A stretch of DNA of 64,000 bases from Chrysomallon squamiferum (lineage: Eukaryota; Animalia; Mollusca). The stretch is taken from the NCBI GenBank assembly GCA_012295275.1, contig CM022672.1, positions 3,348,001-3,412,000 of the forward strand, in the 5' to 3' direction. Below, piece by piece: positions 3,292-53,315 of this stretch. A model generated the notes under the pieces. The model ran no database searches and was not told the DNA's origin. It saw only the letters and a list, made by a program, of their open reading frames with translations. Within the stretch, counting starts at the first letter, position 1; every line of letters begins with the position of its first letter. Both the position numbers and the translations under genes were made by a program.

Positions 3292-4358
3292 TTACTGGTT
3301 GCTAGATCCAACCTGAAAACTCTCGTACTTCCCACTTTTCCTGTTAGATTCCATTTCGTTACTGCTTTCTGGCGAATGTTTTGCTGGCGTCTTAATACAG
3401 AGAAGTTCGTAAAAAGCATGTCTGAAGTTTACATTAAACCAACCGTAAAAGAGGGATTCACGCCCACGGATACCATGGCAACCAGTAAACAAATGGCGTA
3501 CATTAAATTAAAGTTCTTGTTGTGAAATAACAAATAGTCAAAATCGGCCGTAACGTTTAACGCAGTGATCGGCAGCCACGTAACAGAAAACGTCGTAGCT
3601 ACTGCCGTCAGCAAAAGAAGGTTGCGTCGATGTCGTCGGAAGTCTTTGAGAGCCCGTTTATTTTCCGCTTCCGTTACGGGATTGTCAGAAATGCGCATGC
3701 GTAAAAAGTGACAGATGCGACAGTGAAGTGCAGAGATGACGAGGCATGGACTCAGGTACTGCACGATCATGGCGAATGTGGTGTAAATTCCTCTCAGCGT
3801 ATCCGAGGACCAATCCTCCACACAAATGTTGTACAGATTCATGTCTGTCGCGTGGACGATATGCAGGAGAAAGACGGGTAGCGATAACAAGATGGCCGAA
3901 CACCAGATGAAACCGATCGTGAAGTAAATCCTGCGCTTTGTCTTGTCATGCCGTTCCCTCGTTCCGCAGACGATCGACTTGTATCGGTCGTAGGCGATGG
4001 CCACTATCGTGAACGTCGACACGAACACGTTGGCCACTTGTAACGTCGGACCCATCTTGCAGAAAAACGTGCCGAAGGGCCAGTTCTTCAGAGTCAAACG
4101 AATCAACGAAAACGGCATGCAAAACAAGCACATGATGATATCGCAGACCGAGAGATTGAGAATCAACAGATTCCGCGGAGATCTGAGATCGGTGTTCTTG
4201 TAGAGCACGATGCAGACCAAGCTGTTTCCGAACAGACCCAGCACGAGAACGATGCAGTAAGAAAGGACGAGCGCGACCTCGGTCTCCAGGCTAAACCAGT
4301 GGTCGTCCTCTTTCTCCATCCGAACGATGTTTCTGTACGTGGCGTTCACCTCGTCCAT
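3292..4358 (-). CDS. Class A neuropeptide GPCR, NPY/NPF/sNPF-receptor-like, intronless coding region, about 355 aa if a 1-nt frameshift at 3453-3455 is corrected
   Basis: Seven hydrophobic segments with GN (LFGNSLV), TM2 NLSVCD...MPFSL, WPFG..FCK, DRY, ECL2 CVEDW, TM6 WLP, and TM7 NP|LFYGWFNVNFR split between ORFs 3429-4385 and 3292-3492. Likely start ATG 4358 (MDEVNATY, with an N-glycosylation sequon). Confidence 0.88.
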
Positions 4359-5335
4359 CGTAAAGTGCCGAAATGCTTCGATCACGTGTCACTTTTCCGT
4401 TTTATCAATCAGTACGATGTGTAAACTCATCTAAAATAATAATTAAAAAAAAAAAAAAAATTAATAATAATAATAAAAAATTAAATTATAGTACTTCATT
4501 GACTACTAAATATAAGTTAATTCGATAAGGAAATAATCTGGTGTGTGTTTTACGTTCACTAATAAATAAACCATCAAATAAACAGCTAAGAAGTTCGGAC
4601 ATTTCTTGTATCCAGTCCGAGGATCAAAGACCGCGGTGGGTGTTTTCTTGTTTACAGGAAGAAGCATGTTAAAGATTATCTGACAGTAATCCACAGAAGT
4701 AGCCCATGGAAGATCAGCAGAGAGAACGCTAATCTCATAAATATTTTCATTTAAATAAGAAATTATATTCATTTATTCATTCTTGTCATTATATGCGTAT
4801 TTTTATTTCTGAATAGAAAAACTGTCCTTTTAGGGATGAAGTAAAAGCTTATATATGCTTTATAAAATTTTTCCACATTACCATCTCTCTAAAACCATGA
4901 GAAAACATTAACAACAACAAAACAATAATGTTACAAATACAATACACACAGGATAACACATTAACGTGTGACAAGAACGACTTCTACAAACATTTAATTA
5001 CATAAAACAAACATAACAGCAAGAAATCCATTGCAACAAAGCAAACAAAAGTAAATTGAGAAGTCATTTTATACCATTCTGTCATCTGTATTGAATGTCA
5101 GAATGAGAGACCGACTCAGTATTCAAGAAGTACGACAGTGTTAAATCGTCGTTAACAGAAATAACTAAACTTCCAGCAATGTATCTGTTTGTCAGATCAA
5201 GATGAGAACTAGCGATTTTAATGGTTAAGGGCCTGCAGCGATTTGTCAGTAATTTACTCAGTTTATGATTATTTTGTTTTGCAGGGTGAAAAAAAAAAAA
5301 ACCGTAATAGATTACCACAACCACCACCACAACTA

Positions 5336-6012: not shown

Positions 6013-6529
6013 GTCTCTCTGTTTCATTATCCATTTACCTACCTCTTTTTCTCTCCCTCTTTCATTATCCCTATATCCATCCATCTCTCTCTCTGTTTCT
6101 CTCACACTCACCCTTTCAAAATTTGTTTTGTAATTACACATCGATTTCTGACATCAAATGTATAGTGACTGTCATATAAAGTCAACCCGCAGCATTTTCC
6201 CATTAGCCTGAATGCATCATCATTCATGCTTATCTTGCCGTATACAGGAAAGCATATAGGCTGGATTGGGAAACTGCTCAATGGGTGATTAGAGAAGGAT
6301 TATTTCTGCGACATTTACACCACAGAGCTACAACTGGCTGCATAACTCACAAACATACACACACACACACACACATACACATACACGCACACACACACGG
6401 ATATATACACACACACCAACGCATACACACACACACATATATTTGAAATCATAAACTCACACGTACAAATAAATGTGTAATTAAACATAAAACTGATTTG
6501 TTTTTCTAATGGTCGAGCCTGCCTTTTAC

Positions 6530-9181: not shown

Positions 9182-9288
9182 TAATAATAATAATAAAGAA
9201 TGAAACTGTTCTTAACAGATAGAAGTTAGTATACTTCAAAAACAGCGTCTCACTGACCTCCATTAATTCATTGTTGTTTTTTAGTGCG

Positions 9289-11537
9289 TGTACAGAACAC
9301 GTTTTCGGTGGCAGACTGGGTTTCCTGGTTGTCTCTGTACAGAACACGTTTTCACTGGCAGACTGGGTTTCCTGGTTGTCTCTGTACAGAACATTTTCAC
9401 TGGCATACTGGGTTTCTTGGTTGTCTCTGTACAGAACACGTTTTCACTGGCAGACTGGGTTTCCTGGTTGTCTCTGTACAGAACACGTTTTCACTAGCAG
9501 ACTGGGTTTCCTTGTTGTCTCTGTACAGAACACGTTTTCACTGGCAGACTGGGTTTCCTGGTTGTCTCTGTACAGAACACGTTTTCACTGGCAGACTGGG
9601 TTTCCTGGTTGTCTCTGTACAGAACACGTTTTCACTGGCAGACTGGGTTTCTTCTTTGTCTGTGTACAGAACACGTTTTCACTGGCAGACTGGGTTTCCT
9701 GGTTGTCTCTGTACAGAACACGTTTTCACTGGCAGACTGGGTTTCCTGGTTGTCTCTGTACAGAACACGTTTTCATTGGCAGACTGGGTTTCCTGGTTGT
9801 CTCTGTACAGAACACGTTTTCACTGGCAGACTGGGTTTCCTGATTGTCTCTGTACAGAACACGTTTTCACTGACAGACTGGGTTTCCTGGTTGTCTCTGT
9901 ACAGAACACGTTTTCACTGGCAGACTGGGTTTCCTGGTTGTCTCTGTACAGAACACGTTTTCACTGGCAGACTGGGTTTTCCTGGTTGTCTCTGTACAGA
10001 ACACGTTTTCACTGGCAGACTGGGTTTCCTGATTGTCTCTGTACAGAACACGTTTTCACTGACAGACTGGGTTTCCTGGTTGTCTCTGTACAGAACACGT
10101 TTTCACTGGCAGACTGGGTTTCCTGGTTGTCTCTGTACAGAACACGTTTTCACTGGCAGACTGGGTTTCCTGATTGTCTCTGTACAGAACACGTTTTCAC
10201 TGGCAGACTGGGTTTCCTGGTTGTCTCTGTACAGAACACGTTTTCACTAGCAGACTGGGTTTCCTTGTTGTCTCTGTAAAGAACACGTTTTCACTGGCAG
10301 ACTGGGTTTCCTGGTTGCCTCTGTACAGAACACGTTTTCACTGGCAGACTGGGTTTCCTGGTTGTCTCTGTACAGAACATTTTCACTGGCATACTGGGTT
10401 TCTTGGTTGTCTCTGTACAGAACACGTTTTCACTGGCAGACTGGGTTTCCTGGTTGTCTCTGTACAGAACACGTTTTCACTAGCAGACTGGGTTTCCTTT
10501 GTTGTCTCTGTACAGAACACGTTTTCACTGGCAGACTTTTTTCCTGGTTGTTCTGTACAGAACACGTTTTCACTGGCAGACTGGGTTTCCTGGTTGTCTG
10601 TACAGAACACGTTTTCACTGGCAGACTGGGTTTCTTCTTTGTCTGTATACAGAACACGTTTTCACTGGTGGACTGGGTTTCCTGGTTGTCTCTGTACAGA
10701 ACACGTTTTCACTGGCAGACTGGGTTTCCTGATTGTCTCTGTACAGAACACGTTTTCACTAGCAGACTGGGTTTCTTGGTTGTCTCTGTACAGAACACGT
10801 TTTCACTGGCAGACTGGGTTTCCTGGTTGTCTCTGTACAGAACACGTTTTCACTGGCAGACTGGGTTTCCTGGTTGTCTCTGTACAGAACACGTTTTCAC
10901 TAGCAGACTGGGTTTCCTGGTTGTCTCTGTACAGAACACGTTTTCACTGGCAGACTGGGTTTCTTCTTTGTCTGTGTACAGAACACGTTTTCACTGGCAG
11001 ACTGGGTTTCCTGGTTGTCTCTGTACAGAACACGTTTTCACTGGCAGACTGGGTTTCCTGTTTGTCTCTGTACAGAACACGTTTTCACTGGCAGACTGGG
11101 TTTCCTTGTTGTCTCTGTACAGAACACGTTTTCACTGGCAGACTGGGTTTCCTGGTTGTCTCTGTACAGAACACGTTTTCACTGGCAGACTGGGTTTCCT
11201 GGTTGTCTCTGTACAGAACATTTTCACTGGCATACTGGGTTTCCTGATTGTCTCTGTACAGAACACGTTTTCACTGGCAGACTGGGTTTCCTGGTTGTCT
11301 CTGTACAGAACACGTTTTCACTAGCAGACTGGGTTTCCTTGTTGTCTCTGTAAAGAACACGTTTTCACTGGCAGACTGGGTTTCCTGGTTGCCTCTGTAC
11401 AGAACACGTTTTCACTGGCAGACTGGGTTTCCTGGTTGTCTCTGTACAGAACATTTTCACTGGCATACTGGGTTTCTTGGTTGTCTCTGTACAGAACACG
11501 TTTTCACTGGCAGACTGGGTTTCTTGGTTGTCTCTGT
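9289..11537. repeat. Tandem minisatellite, 47-bp unit GTACAGAACACGTTTTCACTGGCAGACTGGGTTTCCTGGTTGTCTCT, about 48 copies
   Basis: tacagaacac at 9291 and 9338 gives a period of 47. Copies are head-to-tail and near-identical, with no unique spacers. Confidence 0.97.
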
Positions 11538-18562: not shown

Positions 18563-19257
18563 CTTTCTGTCGCTTTCTTTCTCTGTACGGGTGTATGATT
18601 CTCTATCACTAAATGTTTCTGTTAGTCACATCGTTTTCTTTCTTTCTTTCTTTCTTTCTTTCTCTTTTTATCAGTATCTCTCACTAAGGCAAACACATAC
18701 ACATACACACGTACTGACATATATAATTAATAAAAAATCAAAAAAAAAAATAAATCAAACTAAACCAAAATCGAAAAAGACAGAAAGTTTTAAATTTAAA
18801 AAAAAAAAAAAAAAAAAAAGACGAAGAAAGAAGTGCCAATATGGACATCATCTTAAGCATTCCATTTCACCCGTGTGGAGATCGTCAGCACGGCATTTCA
18901 GTTTTAATGAGGAGTCCCTGAATAAAACAACGGTCAAAGCAAAAGAGTTAAACAATTCATCATTCTTCTGTTGCAGTAATTGATTTTAATAATGACCGTT
19001 CTTTGACTGCAAAAGAAAGTCATTCCCATGAATAATAGATTCATCTGTTCCATTCAGTTACGTTAGAGGTGAGTTTATTCTGAACCCGGGTGAATGAAAC
19101 TGATTTAATGCTGCTCTGAACTGCACGACGATCTGTCATGTTCCAGTGAAAGGGAAATTATTACCATGCTGTTTACTCTTGGTAAAACAGATTAATACTC
19201 GTTTAAATGTTTATAGTATTTCTCTTTTCATATAATTGTATTTTCCCACTGATTGGG

Positions 19258-21185: not shown

Positions 21186-33095
<11,910 letters not shown>

Positions 33096-34471: not shown

Positions 34472-44185
<9,714 letters not shown>

Positions 44186-44972
44186 AAAATATATATATAA
44201 AGAAAAACCCAAACCTCTCCACATGACTGTAAAAAATAGAACCATTTGACGTAACCCAGTTAATGTAAAACAATATTCACACTAAATTCCTTATGGTATC
44301 AAACAGTAGTAATAAAATGCAGAATCAGTTTCAAAAAAAAAAAAAAAAAATTTCAGATTAAATTATGCCTATGTCATACCATCTTTTATTTCCCACAAAA
44401 ATTGTAAATATATTTTATAAGATACATATATAAAAATAGAAATTAAAATGTGTTTACGATCATTAATCTAATCGACAAGCCGACTGGGTTTTGAACATTT
44501 GATAGCTTATCCTATATTTACGATATTACTAACCTTATTTATTTTTCTTTGATGGATTGTAATTGAATAGTTTGTCATATAATTATATTTTTCTGTTTCT
44601 TAAGGTGTTTCTTTCTTTTAATTTTAATTTTAATTTTTTTAATTTTTTTTTTAATTAAATAAATTATTTTTGTTTTATGAAATATTTGCTGACTTCATTG
44701 AAATCGTGTATGTTTATAATATATGTACAGTCATTATGTGATTTTATATCTATTTTGTCTGTGTTGAAATTATGATCGGTTCTCTTGTATTTGTCCTTGA
44801 AGCAATAAAAGTTTATTTTCGAAAATATTAATTATTTTTGTATTAATTTAAAAAAAAAAAAAAAAATAAAAACACTTTCAGTGTAAAATTTTACCTATAT
44901 AGTTGTTTCTTATATTTGAACTCAAGTACTTGCTGGTGATATGTTTATATATATAAAATGATTTGAGAGAGT

Positions 44973-45032
<60 letters not shown>

Positions 45033-45147
45033 ATTTATATTAGTGGTTACACAAGAAAATATAATCATTCAAACACTAAATTTATAAAACTGTCTATTTC
45101 CATAATATATATGTATAAATAAATAAATATATATATATATATATATA

Positions 45148-46632
45148 TACTCTCCCAAAAAAGAAACGCAAAATGGTAGATTTCTTAAATACCTATTGTA
45201 AACTGACACATATCGATGCACAAACTATGAATATGATGACATTTGGCGATTCAAACTTTTTGCTTTTATTACAGTCGCCAAAAAGCAGGTAACACAAAAT
45301 AAAGGCAATGATCAGGTTTATTAGCCAAAACGTCCCCGCATGCAAACCACGTTACCAGTGCATTTGCACGTGCGGCACATGAAACTTGAATATGAAGGTT
45401 ATAAAAATGCAAGGTTTTCGAATACTTATATTCTTTATTTTTGTTCTGACCCAACATCAAACAAATGTCACGACTGAGTGAACCGCAACGAAACAACGCC
45501 ATCGGCCGTTTACAAGCTGGCGAATCCTTCTCGGCCATAGCCCTGGTGTTCCATCTATCCCCAGTCACCATCTTGAGATTGTGGTATCAAACAACACGTG
45601 ACCATCCCAGATCAGATAGACCACGTGTAACCAACCACCAGGGCCCAGGACCGCTACATACGGGTACTTCATCTACGGGAAAGAACCACCACGGCAACCT
45701 CTACTGCTTCAGCAATACCAGGTCTGCGTAGAATATCGGCTCAGACAGTGCGCAATTGTTTACGCGAGGCAGGTATTCGAGCCAGACGGCCTGTAAGAAG
45801 AGTGGTTTGGACTCAACAACATCGTCGACTACGACGTCAGTGGTGTCACCTGCACAGAGTCTGGCCTCAGTTACGATGGAGAACTGTCTGGTTTAGTGAC
45901 GAGGCTGGATTTCTGCTTCGTCGAGCTGATGGAAGATGTCGAGTTTACAGACGTCATGGTGAACGTTTTGCTGCAAACTGCATACAGGAAGCGGACAGAT
46001 TTGGCGGTGGTAGTGTGATGGTGTGGGCAGCAATCTCACACACTGTTAGGACCAACCTGGTTCACATCCAAGGCAACTAAACGGCACAGAGATACCGAGA
46101 TGAAATTTTGCAGCCACATGTCGCTCCAATTATGAATAACGGTAACGCTGTATTCCAGCACGACAATGCGAGACCACATACAGCCAGACTCACAACAGCG
46201 TACCTACACAACAATAACATTCAGGTCCTTGCCCTGGCCCTCTAAATCTCCGGATTTGAACCCTATAGAGCATTTATGGGACAATTTGGATAGACTGATG
46301 CAGCATCAACCAAAGCTACAGAATCGTGCTCAGTTGGCATTATTACTACATTCAGAGTGGACCACCATTCCACAAGGTGTAATTCATAATGTCATTACTG
46401 CCATGGGAAGGAGATGTCAGGCAGTTCTGGACTCCCATGGTGGGCACACAAGGTATTGATATTATACTGTTATAACCTTGAACTTTAACCTTTTCAATGT
46501 AATACCGTCAGCATTAATGAATTGCGAAAGTGTGTGTAAAATGTGAACATTTTGCTGCTTTCTTTTGATCCATTAGACAGACATTCCCATTGTCAATAAA
46601 ATCTACCTTTGCGTTTCTTTTTTGTTAGAGTA
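45148..46632 (+). mobile_element. Full-length but decayed Tc1/mariner DNA transposon, about 1.49 kb, inserted in a (TA)n tract
   Basis: TIRs TACTCTCCCAAAAAAGAAACGCAAAATGGTAGATTT (left) and TACTCTAACAAAAAAGAAACGCAAAGGTAGATTT (right, reverse complement). TA repeats on both flanks. Internal transposase remnants. Confidence 0.95.
45465..46459 (+). pseudogene. Tc1-like DD34E transposase pseudogene
   Basis: Paired-like HTH start MSRLSEPQRNNAIGRL, WFSDE, GGGSVMVW, FQHDNARPH, WPSKSPDLNPIEHLW, C-terminal GGHTRY*. Broken by at least two frameshifts and a TAA at 46078-46080. Confidence 0.93.
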
Positions 46633-46916
46633 TATATATATATTTGCATGCACACAGACTTCACTTTTAGGGTAGATAACTCTAAATTGAGAACTCTTCA
46701 GTGGAATTTCTAAATTGTTTAAAATATTTCTATATGTTCACGATGTTCACTTATAACTGGAATTATTATTGTATAAATGTTAAATCGAAATTAAAATAAT
46801 TATAACGCAAACGTTTGATGTTGAATTTATTTCGAGAAATATTTAGGTAGTACAAGCAGCGTTAGAAGTATGAGCGTTGAATACACGCAAACACACACTG
46901 CAATTCCTGTAATAGA

Positions 46917-46972
<56 letters not shown>

Positions 46973-47119
46973 TGACAAAAAACAATAATAATAAACAGAA
47001 GTTAAATGCTAATAAACAAGGAAGAACAACTACAGTCAATTTTCCATTCGTGCTGCAATTAATAATATATTGATTAGGTAGAAAATACGTTATTCCTTCA
47101 GGATATAGTTTGATTTTTG

Positions 47120-47163
<44 letters not shown>

Positions 47164-47337
47164 TACTACTACTACTACTACTAATACTACTACTAATACT
47201 AGAAGTATTATTATTATTATTATTATTATATAATAGTCAAGTGTTGATGTTTGTAATATAATAATCATATGTGCATTCTACCTTACAAAATTATCTAAAG
47301 ACAGAATATCTAGAATGGAAAAAACCCAAAATGGAAT

Positions 47338-47372
<35 letters not shown>

Positions 47373-47464
47373 ATAAACCTAAATATATACTTGATAAATA
47401 AATAATATTCTTAAAATATTTCTGAAATGTGAAAGTATTTCGGCTATAATTACCCTGTATGTCA

Positions 47465-47612
47465 TCATCTGCCGTACCCGAAGAATATTTTTACCAGTCT
47501 GTTTACACACTGCCATTCATTGCCGTTGAAGTGGCCGCTGTTGTCTGCGTCACAGAGGTTGTAGATCTGCATGACCCTTAGTTCCATCGTTTGACGTTTG
47601 TCTTTGGGCTGT
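47465..47612 (-). CDS. Last coding exon of a small secreted EF-hand peptide precursor
   Basis: Acceptor cttatttacttcatgcag, phase 2. Translates (T)QPKDKR-QTMELRVMQIYNLCDADNSGHFNGNEWQCVNRLVKIFFGY-GR* with a tandem TGA TGA. The 12-residue EF loop DADNSGHFNGNE is flanked by two Cys. Confidence 0.8.
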
Positions 47613-49805
47613 CTGCATGAAGTAAATAAGTAAATCAACAAATCAGAGAAGTAGTTAAATGACTTCTGAATGCTCTGTTTATTTTGATTTCGTTAATGTT
47701 TTTTTTTTTTGTTTTTTTGTTTTTTTTTTAAATATTTTTATTATAATTAGATATATATATATATATTGTTATTGTTATTGATTTTACCTCGTGAAATTCG
47801 TAATTTTTGTACATCTTTTTATTATTTTGTTTAATTTTAAAAGTCTATGTATTATTAACGATAGAAAACTGGTATTTGCTAGTGTGAATTAAAATGACTG
47901 TTATTAAAAAAGCTGAAACGTTGCAGATAACGACTTGTTTTCGCTGACGTCACTGATTTATATTATGTATCCCAGTTTGCTGTGCGCCATAGCCATTGAT
48001 TTTTACTTAGTTCATCGCTAAATGACAAATAAAATAAAATAAAATAACTATATTCAAATTTCCTTATCAAACTAGACGACTGTAAGATTTATGATGTCTC
48101 ATGACAGTGAATGGAATTACGAATGCAGCATTAAAATAGTCAGATAATGTTAAAATAAGGTAAATATGATATATATATATACCTTTTTTTTTTTTTTTTT
48201 TTTAATGAAAAAGGTTTTTGTCATCGATTTATAATATTTCTTGATCAATTAATTTTTTAGAGCTATGTTTTTTATTTTGTATGAAAATATACGATATAAA
48301 ATACTCATAATGTGAAATAAATGTATAATACATGAGGCCTGACTGCCAATGTGAGAATATCAGAAGTATCGTAATACAGAACCCGTAGGAACCAAACTGC
48401 AAAGTCTTCTCTAGTACAGAACGTCGAAAAGCCGGTGTCTTGATCTGTATTAATACTTGAGTAAACTCATCAACCATATCATCATCATCATCATTACCGT
48501 CATCGTTATTAAATTATGATCATCATCACTGTAAGAGCCAAATGCTATCATGTTCAGATGTTTGTTAATGCAAAACATTAGGTCAGGTTTTTTTTATATA
48601 TAATCTGTGATGTAAAATAAAAACGCTGACAATGTATTTCCGCGAGCAATCTATTACATATGAAATGGACCGAGAAGTACAGTTACTGTAGCGTATACAA
48701 TGTCTTGACAATAGCATTGTTCTTATTGTTCTTGCAGGGTTTTTTGTTTTGTTTTGTTTTTTTTTTTTTTCCTTTTTTTTTACTTTTTGTTATTGTTTTG
48801 TTTTGTTTTTATCTTTTTAAATTTTTAGTGTTTTTTACTTTTTTTTTTCGCCATTTTTTCTCGTTTTTGTTATTTTTGTGACTACTGCAGTAATTGTGTG
48901 AGACTGAAAGTGGCTTTCCTAAAATAAACTCCGTCTAAAATGTATCTCACTAGAGAAATGATAAAATAATTTTAAAAAAAATATTATTTTTTTAAAGAAT
49001 ATTGTTTTTCATATATTAAAGGCTGCACATGAATTACAGCATTATTTTTCTCTTTTTTTTTCTTCCCTGTATTTACTGATGCACTTGAAAACAAAATTCC
49101 ATTATCCTAAGACACAAACAAAAACAGAAAAGAAAAAAAAAAAAAAAAAAAAAGCACCTTCCAGTAAATTTAAACAAATTTAATTATGGTTTAAGCACGA
49201 CTGTCATGCCTGCAAACACGACGTGTTTTCTGAAGCTAAAAATACCATTAGTGTACTAAAACTGTTGTGACAATTCAGTTTAATCCAATATAACTTCCTT
49301 CCCAACCAGAGTTAATCTCGGCGGATTTCAAATGTCATAGTGAAGAATGCGTGGACGCTGCTACTGGTACCAGTGCGCCTCGTGCGATTTAATCCAACTC
49401 GGAATAGTCTGAAAGTTTCTTATAAACGCGACCTTAAAATGGAAAGAAATTGTAATAGGAAGTGACTTTACAAGGAAGGAAAATCTTATTAGTTCCTTGT
49501 TTAAGAAGGAAGATTTAAAAACTCTTGTGTGTGAATGCTAATGCTATGAAAAAAAAAAAAGCGGGATGTAATTCATTTGTTTAAGAACTGGACAGAGACA
49601 CGGCGGGGTGAATATCACTTCGCTTTGATGAAGATGTTCACTAATTTCCCGTTCCAGAGATAGCCCAATGATTATAAAATACGTACATTACGTTTTAAAT
49701 GTGTGTATGTGTGCATGCATATATGTATCTATGAATATGTTTATGTGCGTATTATGTATATATGAAGAATGTATGTATGGATGTATGGATGTATGGATGT
49801 ATGTA

Positions 49806-49876
<71 letters not shown>

Positions 49877-51050
49877 ATGTATGTATGTATGTATGTATGT
49901 ATGTGTATATGTGTTATGTATTCATGTATGGATGTATATAATTATGTATGTACGTATGTTCCATATTAACATCATCTTGCTATGTTCACTGACCATGACC
50001 TTCGCCTTCAAGATGTGGGACAGCGGATCTGAGTTAGACAATGCGCTTTCGACGTATCAGTTGACTTTCATCTGCCTGTTATCACGACGAACGCTAAGCT
50101 CGTCGTTCATCGCGCGGATTCAAACCGCAGCCACCCTACAACACCTAATTAAAACGTCATTTTGAGGGCCTTGTTTCGGCCAACGCCATTATTTCCTTAG
50201 CGATTAAGGATTTCTCGAAAAGGATTAATTCTTCAAAGTGAGCTAGCTGCACGCTGGCGTGTTTCCGTGATGTCATTAGCGACCCCACGAACAGCGCGGT
50301 CCTGTTAAATCCCGAAAAGTGCAGTCTGTGGTCTACATCACCAGCAGACAAATTCATCGGTTTACGTTTAAGCAGTCATCCCTATATAAGTCAGCTAAGT
50401 GAAATCAAAATATGATTTAATATTAGTATTTGTATAAGCTAATGCTTGAAAGTTTCTCTTAGAAAAAAAAAAAAAAATAAAAAAAATAAATTGAAATAAA
50501 TCCGTAATAATGTTTCAATAACATATCAATCTTAATTTACTTCGATGTAAGAATTAAAGTATTTGTCATTTAATCGATACGGCGTTCTTCGCAAGGAAAT
50601 ATTAATAATATTAAGACAGACGCGTAAAATTCTGTGTAAGTCGAGAGTTTACAAATTCTTTGATCCGGCGAATCACGGAAGTTACTGTTTGGCAATCGCT
50701 AGCTTCCCCCATGACAAATGTGATTGAACAGTTATTATTAGCCATATTATGCTGTACGAGTTGTTGTTGTTGTTGTGTACGAGCAGCAGAAGCTGTGGTA
50801 GTAACAGTAACAGCTGAGGTATTAATGGTTGTTGTTGTTGTAGCAGTAGTAGAAGTAATTTATTTTGATGGTTCATATTTCAAAAAACACATTTCTGATT
50901 CAAGATTACTTAGCTATAAAATTATATCTTCTAATACGGGCTTGACGTTTATGTTACTCTTGTAATTGTGTTTTTATTGTTGTTGCTGTTGATGATTGTG
51001 CTATGTACTACTACTACTACTATTATTAAAATTAGTATTGATATCATCAG

Positions 51051-51099
<49 letters not shown>

Positions 51100-51756
51100 T
51101 TAGTTTTTACCACAATCATTTAACGTTTTTCAATATTTCTAACCTTAGCAACTCCTTAAAATGTACATTAAATTCAAAACAAAATTATTTTTTATTATTA
51201 ATATTAACAACAAATTTATACATTTAATTCCATTTATGTTTAAACAAATTTTGTTGTTGTTGTTGACCGTTCTGGTCATCACATTTTCTTTCCTACGCGT
51301 ACAAAAAAAAAAAAAAAAAAAAAATAAATTCATTTTTCGTGGAGTTTCGGCTTTGTAAACAACAGGTAATTTTAAACAATGTGTGCTACATAACATATTT
51401 TATTGATAAGCCCACACTTTATGTCAAACGTATTACACACTGCGGTGAATTCACTCGCTTGATGAGAGCTGGTCACGCGGGTAACGAGTGTTGCGGCGAC
51501 AAGCATGATTTGCCATTTATCACTGTTTGTCTTTTCTTTGTTCAGCGTGGATATTGGTTCTGTTCTTCTGTGAAGAGTCTGGTTTCATTCCAAGTTACGT
51601 GGTACTGTCAAAACTCATTACACAAATGAATTCGCCCATCCTTATGATTCAGCATAACCTACTCCTACGTAGTTGTATGTTTTCCAGTACGATAGGGAAT
51701 AAAGTTAATATAATTTTTCAGGGATGAATAATTTCTGTTTTTGTATCTGTCAGCAA

Positions 51757-51841
<85 letters not shown>

Positions 51842-52041
51842 GTTTTCTTTTTCTTTAGTTTTACTGTAATAAAGTTGAAGCAGTGGAAAATTAGCTGCAT
51901 AATACACAACATATTGTTACCTGTGAGTATTACCGCAAATACGACAAACTGCAGAACTTAACCACAAACTGCTACACTGCGCAGATTAACACAGACGCAC
52001 GCACAAACACACACACACACACATATACGTATTACACTTAC

Positions 52042-52121
52042 GTAATAATGCTGAAACAATGAGCAGTGACAGCTAGAAGTAGCAGTGTTGTACACAGATG
52101 TCTTGTGATTTTCTGGTTCAT
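52042..52121 (-). CDS. Signal-peptide exon of the small secreted EF-hand peptide precursor
   Basis: Acceptor tttcag (exon starts 52140), ATG with A at -3, MNQKITRHLCTTLLLLAVTAHCFSII, donor AC|GTAAGT in phase 2, matching the 47612 exon. Confidence 0.78.
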
Positions 52122-53315
52122 GTTAGGACGGATCTGGTGCCTGAAACTTAATAAATACAAAGTTTACATTATTATTTTATATTTCTGTTATACAGTCAAT
52201 AACACAGAAACATGTGTAATCACGTAAGCATACGCAGATAATCACATATATTAATATATACATACTTATAAAATTAAGTCTAAAGATAACGAGGAAATTA
52301 TTTGAAATATCCAAATTATAATTATCTACTATATACGTATAAACACACACACATTTTCAGAGAGAGAAAAACCGACCCCAATAATGATGCATTTTCTGTT
52401 TTCAGAATATTTTTTATAGCTTTTTCTTTATATATTATTATTATTATTTTTATTATTTTTATTTATATAAAAATAAATGTAGGTCTATTTAATTGAAACA
52501 ATGGCACTACAGCAGTAATTTACTGATGTTTCGGTTAATCTTAGAAGAAAAACGAACGAAGGAGAAAAACATTATACTAACTCTGAGAAACAAATTCGAC
52601 AATAAATCATTTTAATTGACTAATAGTATCATCTGTCTTTTTCGCCGGATCTGCCCCTACAACATCACACAAATGGATCGATGCACGACGTCCAATTACA
52701 GACTTCATTAGAGTATTAACTGCAGCTCATCGACTGCGGGAGCTTTGAGACAGAACAGTCCGTTTTTCTGCTGCCGGATTTTATTATACCGCAAGAGTTT
52801 TCTTTATAGCAACACTTCGCTTACAACAATCAACCCGATTAATACCAGTTAAGAGGAAATAAAAGCTGTATTAACACCCCCGACCTATTTTCGGATCGCT
52901 GTTCTATTTCCGGCCTCGATTACTTTATGTTATCTCCAAGGAACACATTAATATAAAACCAGTTACGTGATAGAAAAAAAAAAAAAAAAATTAAAGAACT
53001 AAAAAGAATTGTCATAAAATGATCTATCGTTTACTGACAGCGGGGGAGGACAGAAATTATAGACGCGAAAAATTGATGGGTATTTTTTTTTGGTTTGTTT
53101 TGTTTTTTTATTTTGGTCTATCTCCGATCCCATTCCATATCCTCGCTAGCAAAGTCTCGATCTAATAGTTTTAAAGTTTATTTAACAATGTCTTATTTTG
53201 TAATCGTGTAGTTACGATACATGTTTAGGAAGATTACTGATTAATATATTAAACATGCAGTTAAATAAACTGTAAAAATAAATAACAATATTTCGGCGCA
53301 AGCAGATATTTAAAA

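Follow-up and report, generated by a model that had tools for sequence, protein, structure and literature searches.

A 64,000-nt stretch of the Chrysomallon squamiferum genome (contig CM022672.1, positions 3,348,001 to 3,412,000, assembly GCA_012295275.1; hereafter the window) was analysed. A short gene on its minus strand was found to belong to a real, conserved and undescribed family of small EF-hand peptides, the secretion of which is predicted. In the reading that we consider probable, this two-exon gene of a small mollusc family encodes a 75-residue product that would enter the secretory pathway and yield a 40-residue peptide made of a single EF-hand. All positions given below are those of the window, and the joined product was translated from the coordinates by script. 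The initial annotation of this DNA had proposed two short exons joined in phase 2. This model was borne out: the joined exons comprise 228 nt including the stop (TGA at 47467-47465), the junction lies in phase 2, and the translation was identical to the residues given earlier. Exon 1 contributes a translation of 26 residues (P0002) and exon 2 one of 48 residues (P0001).

Relatives in other molluscs and coding signal

Relatives of the product were sought by an exhaustive phmmer (HMMER) search of 1,835,955,588 protein representatives at E<=0.001. Six proteins were returned, three of which are true relatives: KAH9496895.1 of Bulinus truncatus (P0125; 71 residues, E 2.6e-5, 50% identity, 'hypothetical protein'), KAK6174303.1 of Patella caerulea (P0126; 79 residues, E 1.5e-4, 'hypothetical protein', in UniRef 'EF-hand domain-containing protein') and a 146-residue open reading frame (ORF) on a 1108-nt contig (P0127; E 2.7e-4). 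The others (P0123, P0124 and P0128) were discarded as repeat proteins that matched just on a short Asp-rich stretch of the CD.D..G type. In pairwise BLASTP the exon 2 translation shared 19 of 41 residues with the Patella protein (E 4e-15), and the Bulinus and Patella proteins matched each other with E 6e-15. When the three relatives were compared with the window by tblastn, exon 2 was the only region aligned (E 3e-11 to 4e-9). Scans of metagenomes with a protein pattern and with an exact 49-mer gave no match.

A further member was found in the scaphopod Antalis entalis. The sequence antalisEntalis.118322 (75 residues) stands unannotated in supplement file 2 of PMC6425005, presumably Dataset S1 of that paper, and is one family member among the file 2 entries listed. 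A secreted prohormone-like set was predicted there from transcriptomes with a SignalP 4.0 filter (De Oliveira et al., 2019; PMC6425005). The Antalis protein starts with a hydrophobic leader, continues with ..QGKR and then SMTDLAFMQIYDMCDRNRDGIFQASEYQCANDVANLLFK, and has both Cys and no C-terminal Gly. This sequence derives from RNA and thus shows transcription of the family in one mollusc at least. The Antalis spacer ends in ..MKMRQGKR and could itself yield an amidated ..MRQ-NH2, a feature absent from the window, Patella and Bulinus products. With the window, the family as analysed here has five members.

Among the window sequence and the three database relatives, 12 columns are invariant (K5, R6, L11, Q15, Y17, C20, D21, D23, G26, F28, E32 and C35), and these take in the dibasic site, the Cys pair and each canonical position of the loop. 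K5, R6, C20, D21, D23, G26, F28, E32 and C35 were also recognised by eye in Antalis. Mollusc relatives had been named beforehand as the place to look for conservation. The Lys-Arg, both Cys and the loop ligands are kept in all of them, no homolog lacking the Lys-Arg was found, and the C-terminal Gly-Arg is kept in part. The N-termini of the Bulinus protein (..FCCR/LIRN..) and of the 146-residue ORF (..LLFSYR/LYPS..) resemble a translated pyrimidine tract followed by YAG; read-through of the window across its acceptor looks alike (..LFTSCR/QPKD..), and the tblastn alignment of the Bulinus protein runs on upstream of this acceptor. Because these N-termini read like translated intron ends, both sequences are probably unspliced or mis-modelled and without the true signal-peptide exon, with an intron at about the same place.

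The size of the relatives also bears on whether exon 2 closes a larger gene, multi-EF-hand or SPARC-like, with other exons that lie beyond 64000 or were missed. The initial annotation had itself considered exon 2 as the tail of a larger protein. EF-hands are normally paired, and the window has 12 kb of upstream sequence only. Moreover, directly 5' of the exon 1 ATG the frame is open and a TTTCAG resembling an acceptor is present, so that the 5' end of exon 1 is not fixed. However, the complete relatives are small proteins of 71-79 residues with their own start and stop. No second EF loop was found in the window by pattern scan, the other match being stop-flanked, no longer protein sharing words was returned by the word-based search, and neither Pfam nor the PDB gave a SPARC or Kazal signal. 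We regard a larger gene as very improbable.

The coding signal of exon 2 was then compared with chance expectation. Exon 2 forms a local peak of GC and CpG (GC 0.47, 7 CpG), the neighbouring 100-nt bins having a GC of 0.12-0.33. A codon log-odds model was trained on 1647 codons from the window's own G protein-coupled receptor (GPCR) and copper-oxidase ORFs. It gave exon 2 +15.2 bits in the proposed frame and -15.7 and -22.8 bits in the other two. A relaxed EF-loop pattern matched the six frames of the 64 kb twice, once in the loop of the gene and once in a stop-flanked site at 18982; the mean in 100 composition-preserving block shuffles was 0.16. These results also speak to a silent relic or a chance ORF that is not expressed in C. 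squamiferum. The lack of a canonical AATAAA within 630 nt past the stop (the nearest, at 46831-46826, lies 634 nt downstream) would suit such a relic. On the other hand, the frame and the splice sites are intact, 12 of 12 family-invariant residues are kept, the codon bias is specific to one frame, and a TATAAA is present 90 nt past the stop. A relic is accordingly judged improbable, and the locus is very probably a real gene.

The choice of exon 1 was examined in the same way. The 16.4 kb that precede exon 2 hold six phase-compatible ORFs of at least 15 codons ending at a GTRAG donor; exon 1 is among them, and none of the others is coding- or signal-like. The combination of an ATG, a signal-peptide-like ORF and a GTRAG donor occurs twice over the two strands of the window together, as exon 1 and as a (TG)n microsatellite artefact at 6424. 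In 60 shuffles the same rule gave a mean of 0.37 cases per window, or 0.1 when phase 2 was required, a rarity that is indicative only because the rule was written after the candidate had been seen.

Several results nevertheless count against the proposed gene model. The codon score of exon 1 is not positive (-7.8 bits), and no BLASTP match of exon 1 to the N-terminus of the Patella protein was detectable at E<=100; exon 1 is assigned only from layout, phase and rarity. Contigs of four genomic DNA runs span the border of exon 2 and the intron (47381-47689), and the spliced gene is known here from genomic sequence alone. Word-indexed searches of 5.8 billion protein clusters of similar and greater lengths returned no relative, but the collection is apparently without the proteins of the source organism, since the neighbouring gene reached 77% identity there at best.

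It is also conceivable that exon 2 is real and its 5' partner wrong. Either translation would then begin at an in-frame ATG within exon 2 (AAACGATGG) and yield a cytosolic EF-hand micropeptide of 40 residues, or a different first exon would be used. In favour of a wrong partner, the internal ATG is flanked by A at -3 and by G at +4, exon 1 shows neither coding-type codon usage nor likeness to the Patella protein, and the Bulinus model has no signal peptide. Several findings speak against it. The invariant K5 and R6 lie upstream of that Met, which is replaced by Arg in the 146-residue ORF, the Patella and Antalis proteins begin with hydrophobic leaders, and the phase-compatible donor ORFs upstream offer no other candidate that is coding- or signal-like. 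A wrong 5' partner is thus considered unlikely, slightly less so than a relic, and the two-exon model is kept below.

The EF-hand and its flanking cysteines

The loop of the window peptide reads D-A-D-N-S-G-H-F-N-G-N-E, with the canonical ligands 1, 3, 5 and 12, Gly6 and a hydrophobic residue at position 8 all in place. It fits the canonical EF loop (D1, D3, S5, G6, hydrophobic 8 and E12) that had been read from it initially, and these positions are kept in the relatives. D1, D3, G6, F8 and E12 are invariant in the four aligned sequences (4/4), position 5 is S or N, and the Antalis loop reads D, N, D, G, F and E by eye. The two Cys flanking the loop are likewise invariant (4/4) and present in Antalis. 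Phe at loop position 8, together with Cys at -1 and +3, marks the family.

The resemblance to EF-hands was assessed with sequence and structure searches. In Pfam, one common stretch was recognised by EH (E 0.011), EF-hand_1 (E 0.038) and EF-hand_6 (E 0.054). A phmmer search of the PDB gave 15 matches at E<=10, led by NCS-1 (7.7e-4) and CDPK (2.1e-3); 14 of them are to EF-hand or EH proteins. With the family profile, 28 PDB matches were obtained at E<=1, 26 of them to EF-hand proteins and the best to secretagogin (6.2e-4). The top ESM Atlas clusters for the window peptide (score 0.95) were EF-hand families. AlphaFold2, given the four-sequence alignment, predicted a helix at residues 3-20, a 9-residue loop and a helix at residues 30-44, with a predicted local distance difference test (pLDDT) score of 72. 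NCS-1, secretagogin, CDPK and aequorin are the best sequence matches for the loop and its flanking helices, and these matches are weak (E about 1e-3). In contrast to the family product, such cytosolic sensors have four to six EF-hands and no signal peptide, Cys staple or processing sites.

Other observations argue against an EF-hand assignment. The Pfam cut-offs were missed by EF-hand_1 (PF00036; 14.0 versus 25.4 bits) and by EF-hand_6 (PF13405; 13.7 versus 25), and the three database relatives matched no Pfam family at E<=0.1. Single-domain PDB matches are weak, the full-sequence E-values being sums over several repeats. Foldseek found no PDB match at E<=0.001, its top rows being disulfide-stapled helical hairpins (small Tims) with E>1. 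The Phe at loop position 8, present in all members, is outside the classical PROSITE set.

The chain holds one EF loop only in its 75 residues and no paired second EF-hand. A homodimer prediction with two Ca2+ scored 0.01 and gave no answer, speaking neither for nor against a dimer. Taken together, the likeness to EF-hands is real, if modest, and the domain appears to be a true though divergent EF-hand in which selection has kept the complete set of ligands. Ca2+ binding by the peptide is predicted and has the better chance of being correct.

Processing and possible role of the peptide

The precursor features expected of a secreted peptide were compared among the members. The candidate signal peptide of the window product passes a crude von Heijne-type -3/-1 rule and an equally crude hydropathy check. 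The highest 10-residue Kyte-Doolittle mean is 2.61 in the window product, 2.88 in the Patella protein and 1.16 in the Bulinus protein, and TLLLL is common to the window and Patella leaders. These two products share one plan, with a leader of about 22 residues, a short spacer, Lys-Arg and the EF peptide; the Antalis protein likewise has a hydrophobic leader, a short spacer, Lys-Arg and an EF peptide of about 40 residues. The Lys-Arg site, which the initial annotation had taken to be of the prohormone type, is conserved in all four aligned sequences and in Antalis.

The C-termini were less uniform. The window product ends in ..FFGYGR, the Bulinus protein in ..LFTGR, the Patella protein in ..FFGRK and the Antalis protein in ..LLFK, and the 146-residue ORF continues past that point. 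The proposed C-terminal Gly-basic signal thus held for the window, Patella and Bulinus, but not for Antalis. Three points tell against the hormone-type processing scheme: the Gly-basic amidation end is not universal in the family; the N-terminal Gln, earlier proposed to become pyroglutamate, is not conserved, the relatives having S, S, G and S there; and the Bulinus protein is without a credible leader. Secretion of the product and its cleavage at the Lys-Arg are predicted, and we consider them likely.

On these features the following maturation may be proposed. The 22-residue leader would be removed co-translationally, and a convertase of the PC1/3 or PC2 type would cut after the Lys-Arg and release QTMELRVMQIYNLCDADNSGHFNGNEWQCVNRLVKIFFGYGR. 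Carboxypeptidase E and PAM would then likely convert ..Y-G-R to ..Tyr-NH2, and the N-terminal Gln7 may cyclise to pyroglutamate. The peptide would fold as a helix-loop-helix around one Ca2+, liganded by D1, D3, S5, the backbone O of position 7 and a bidentate E12. The invariant Cys at -1 and +3 would likely form a disulfide, either an intrachain staple at the base of the loop or an interchain bond. Single EF-hands are normally found in pairs, and the peptide may therefore form a homodimer or work on a partner molecule. The Ca2+ of granules and of extracellular fluid, millimolar in the latter, would fill the site, and the role of the metal would thus be that of a structural cofactor.

Such a product would most likely be a secreted signalling peptide (a neuropeptide or hormone), an assignment that is tentative. 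The main alternative is that the same secreted product carries no signal and instead handles Ca2+, as a binder in granules or in the endoplasmic reticulum/Golgi, or is a biomineralisation peptide of the shell or scale matrix. EF-hand proteins of the secretory pathway exist, the pleurin/HCS2 precursor has a C-terminal EF-hand of unknown role, and the family members so far come from shell-bearing molluscs only. The Atlas leads for the Patella protein, at 0.79-0.86, were weakly to MCFD2-like and mollusc 'EF-hand domain-containing' clusters, but all of these scores are below 0.9 and are leads only. Moreover, the conserved dibasic site right before the domain and the Gly-basic end, which 3 of the 4 complete members have, mark peptide hormones and not matrix or resident proteins, and neither a retention signal nor acidic or repetitive matrix-type sequence is present. 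We consider a non-signalling role unlikely, and clearly less so than a larger gene or a relic.

A more far-reaching form of the signalling role would be an undescribed family of peptide signals, of such an age that gastropods and scaphopods have it in common, the sole product of which is a disulfide-stapled, amidated single EF-hand of 40 residues. This hormone or neuropeptide would have its active fold, and perhaps its dimerisation, set by extracellular or granule Ca2+; it would be the first EF-hand peptide messenger, and we hold it to be doubtful. To our knowledge, EF-hands are found almost only as paired modules, in intracellular sensors and buffers or in extracellular matrix proteins of larger size. 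In the present family a single EF-hand stands amid hormone-type processing marks, namely a leader, the invariant Lys-Arg, a pair of invariant Cys and, mostly, a Gly-basic end, and this arrangement is conserved across limpets, pulmonate snails and a tusk shell. The new point is a prohormone-type precursor with a lone EF-hand as its payload. If the peptide is made, its 40 residues would be within reach of chemical synthesis and could serve as a model for folding that depends on Ca2+; the peptide would also be a new ligand candidate for the orphan receptors of molluscs. ORF-based tracks miss two-exon genes as small as this one.

Known systems, gene anatomy and surroundings

The family was compared with known secreted EF-hand proteins. 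The gastropod HCS2 is said to have been described as a neuropeptide precursor by Bogdanov and co-workers in 1998. Pleurin has been identified with HCS2, and its precursor has a C-terminal EF-hand, according to PMC8398477. Like the window product, the pleurin/HCS2 precursor of gastropods is a mollusc secretory precursor with a signal peptide, processing at dibasic sites and one C-terminal EF-hand; no other neuropeptide precursor of molluscs is known to have such a domain at that end. Unlike it, Deroceras pleurin1/2 (PMC7749107 supplement) have 176-179 residues and three ..YPR[IV]-amide copies, and their EF region, compared by eye, shows no flanking Cys pair, no Lys-Arg directly before it and no Gly-basic end. 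The motif PRXG[KR] was found neither in the six frames of the window (0 matches) nor, by eye, in the three database relatives. Identity with pleurin/HCS2 was rejected on the lack of PRX-amide copies and a likeness limited, by eye, to the generic loop.

The EC domain of SPARC/BM-40 shares with the peptide an extracellular EF-hand, a loop bracketed by a disulfide Cys pair and a Glu-Trp after the loop. In contrast to the peptide, SPARC has an EF-hand pair in a domain of about 150 residues beside a follistatin-like module, with a Cys spacing one residue longer. No SPARC chain was among the 15 or 28 PDB matches, and no SPARC_Ca_bdg match was found in Pfam at E<=10. The resemblance to the second EF-hand of SPARC/BM-40, noted initially, was thus unsupported by either search, and membership was rejected in favour of an analogy. 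Nucleobindin-2/nesfatin-1 is a secreted EF-hand precursor from which prohormone convertases free a signalling peptide; it differs in being large and in having two EF-hands, nesfatin-1 is not its EF-hand part, and no sequence match to it was obtained here.

Other candidates were also set aside. The PXRX family was rejected on its four Cys and P[FM]R[WY] motif, as given in PMC6425005, and a 214-residue salivary EF-hand protein of Raphitoma proved unrelated. The family is not described in the section of PMC6425005 on mollusc-specific families, and its motif was absent from the supplements of PMC8557429 and PMC5455113 (the latter two including a study of Biomphalaria ganglia). Searches of the literature by sequence strings and keywords found no description of the family, although one may stand in subscription papers or in some supplements. 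In keeping with the initial annotation, which had recognised no named neuropeptide family, no described family matched once pleurin/HCS2 had been set apart, and the database names are automatic only.

The features of the gene are collected in Table 1. The TATAAA upstream of exon 1 may be a core promoter, although in DNA this rich in AT such a hexamer is weak evidence, and the TATAAA past the stop is a possible variant poly(A) signal. Among the differences listed, those of the read contigs near exon 2 fall without exception on the 3' side of the stop, at 47419, 47422 and 47424 and, for an insertion, at 47393.

Table 1. Features of the EF-hand peptide gene, in transcript order.
Feature	Position	Strand	Detail	Basis
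TATAAA box-like hexamer	52176..52181	-	first base 60 nt upstream of ATG	script scan
Exon 1, coding part	52042..52121	-	80 nt: ATG (A at 52121), MNQKITRHLCTTLLLLAVTAHCFSII and 2 nt of a Thr codon; 3' end ..ATTATTAC	
Predicted signal peptide, 22 residues	52056..52121	-	n-region with K4 and R7; h-region LCTTLLLLAVTA; c-region A-H-C before F	
Splice donor GTAAGT	52036..52041	-	phase 2	read in sequence
Intron	47613..52041	-	4429 nt; microsatellites and a GC/CpG-rich tRNA-like patch inside	
Pyrimidine-rich tract and CAG acceptor	47613..47640	-	TGTTGATTTACTTATTTACTTCATGCAG; exon 2 begins at 47612 after TTACTTATTTACTTCATGCAG	read in sequence
Exon 2, coding part and stop	47465..47612	-	(T)QPKDKRQTMELRVMQIYNLCDADNSGHFNGNEWQCVNRLVKIFFGYGR, then stop	composition, codon score, relatives
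Lys-Arg dibasic site, predicted convertase cleavage	47594..47599	-	invariant in 4/4 aligned sequences; also in Antalis	alignment
Predicted mature 40-residue peptide	47474..47593	-	Q7..Y46 of P0001	Lys-Arg and C-terminal Gly-Arg
Cys20	47552..47554	-	loop position -1	invariant in alignment
EF-hand loop	47516..47551	-	DADNSGHFNGNE: D1, D3, S5, G6, F8, E12	pattern scan, Pfam, PDB, Atlas
Cys35	47507..47509	-	3 residues past loop E12	invariant in alignment
C-terminal Gly-Arg, predicted amidation signal	47468..47473	-	would give ..FFGY-NH2	P0001; relatives' ends
TATAAA, candidate variant poly(A) signal	47370..47375	-	90 nt past stop	script scan

Pattern scan of the 4429-nt intron found neither a second EF loop nor a PRXG[KR] motif. 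A GC/CpG-rich patch within it (50100-50450, minus strand) contains a tRNA T-arm-like sequence (GGTTTGAATCC) and a 72-codon ORF of fair codon score, which ranks 44th among 790. The patch may be a short interspersed element or a tRNA-derived repeat; ARAGORN detected no tRNA in 47000-53000.

The window as a whole is animal DNA with a GC content of 23-42% in 2-kb bins and many microsatellites. An intronless ORF of 319 codons at 3432-4388 (minus strand), 43 kb from the peptide gene, encodes a rhodopsin-family GPCR (7tm_1, E 2.9e-46), and its motifs resemble, by eye, those of a neuropeptide receptor. Two hephaestin/ceruloplasmin-like multicopper-oxidase genes stand head to head at 21600-31500 (minus strand) and 35500-44200 (plus strand), in exon-sized ORF pieces with HCH..DH..GM motifs. 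The plus-strand copy has a long Ser/Thr/Asn-rich tail at about 43400-44185, and the best identities of the neighbouring oxidase are 77% to Gigantopelta aegis and 58% to Haliotis. A Tc1/mariner-type element at 45122-46676 (HTH_Tnp_Tc3_2, E 4.4e-9) is present in very high copy, with a summed contig depth of 20,000-50,000 versus about 100 in the flanks (run X1). A long minisatellite occupies 9200-11350 (plus strand), where all three phases are open and the unit ..QTGFPGCLCTEHVFTGRLGFLVVSVQNTFSLADWVSWLSLYRTRFHW.. is repeated many times.

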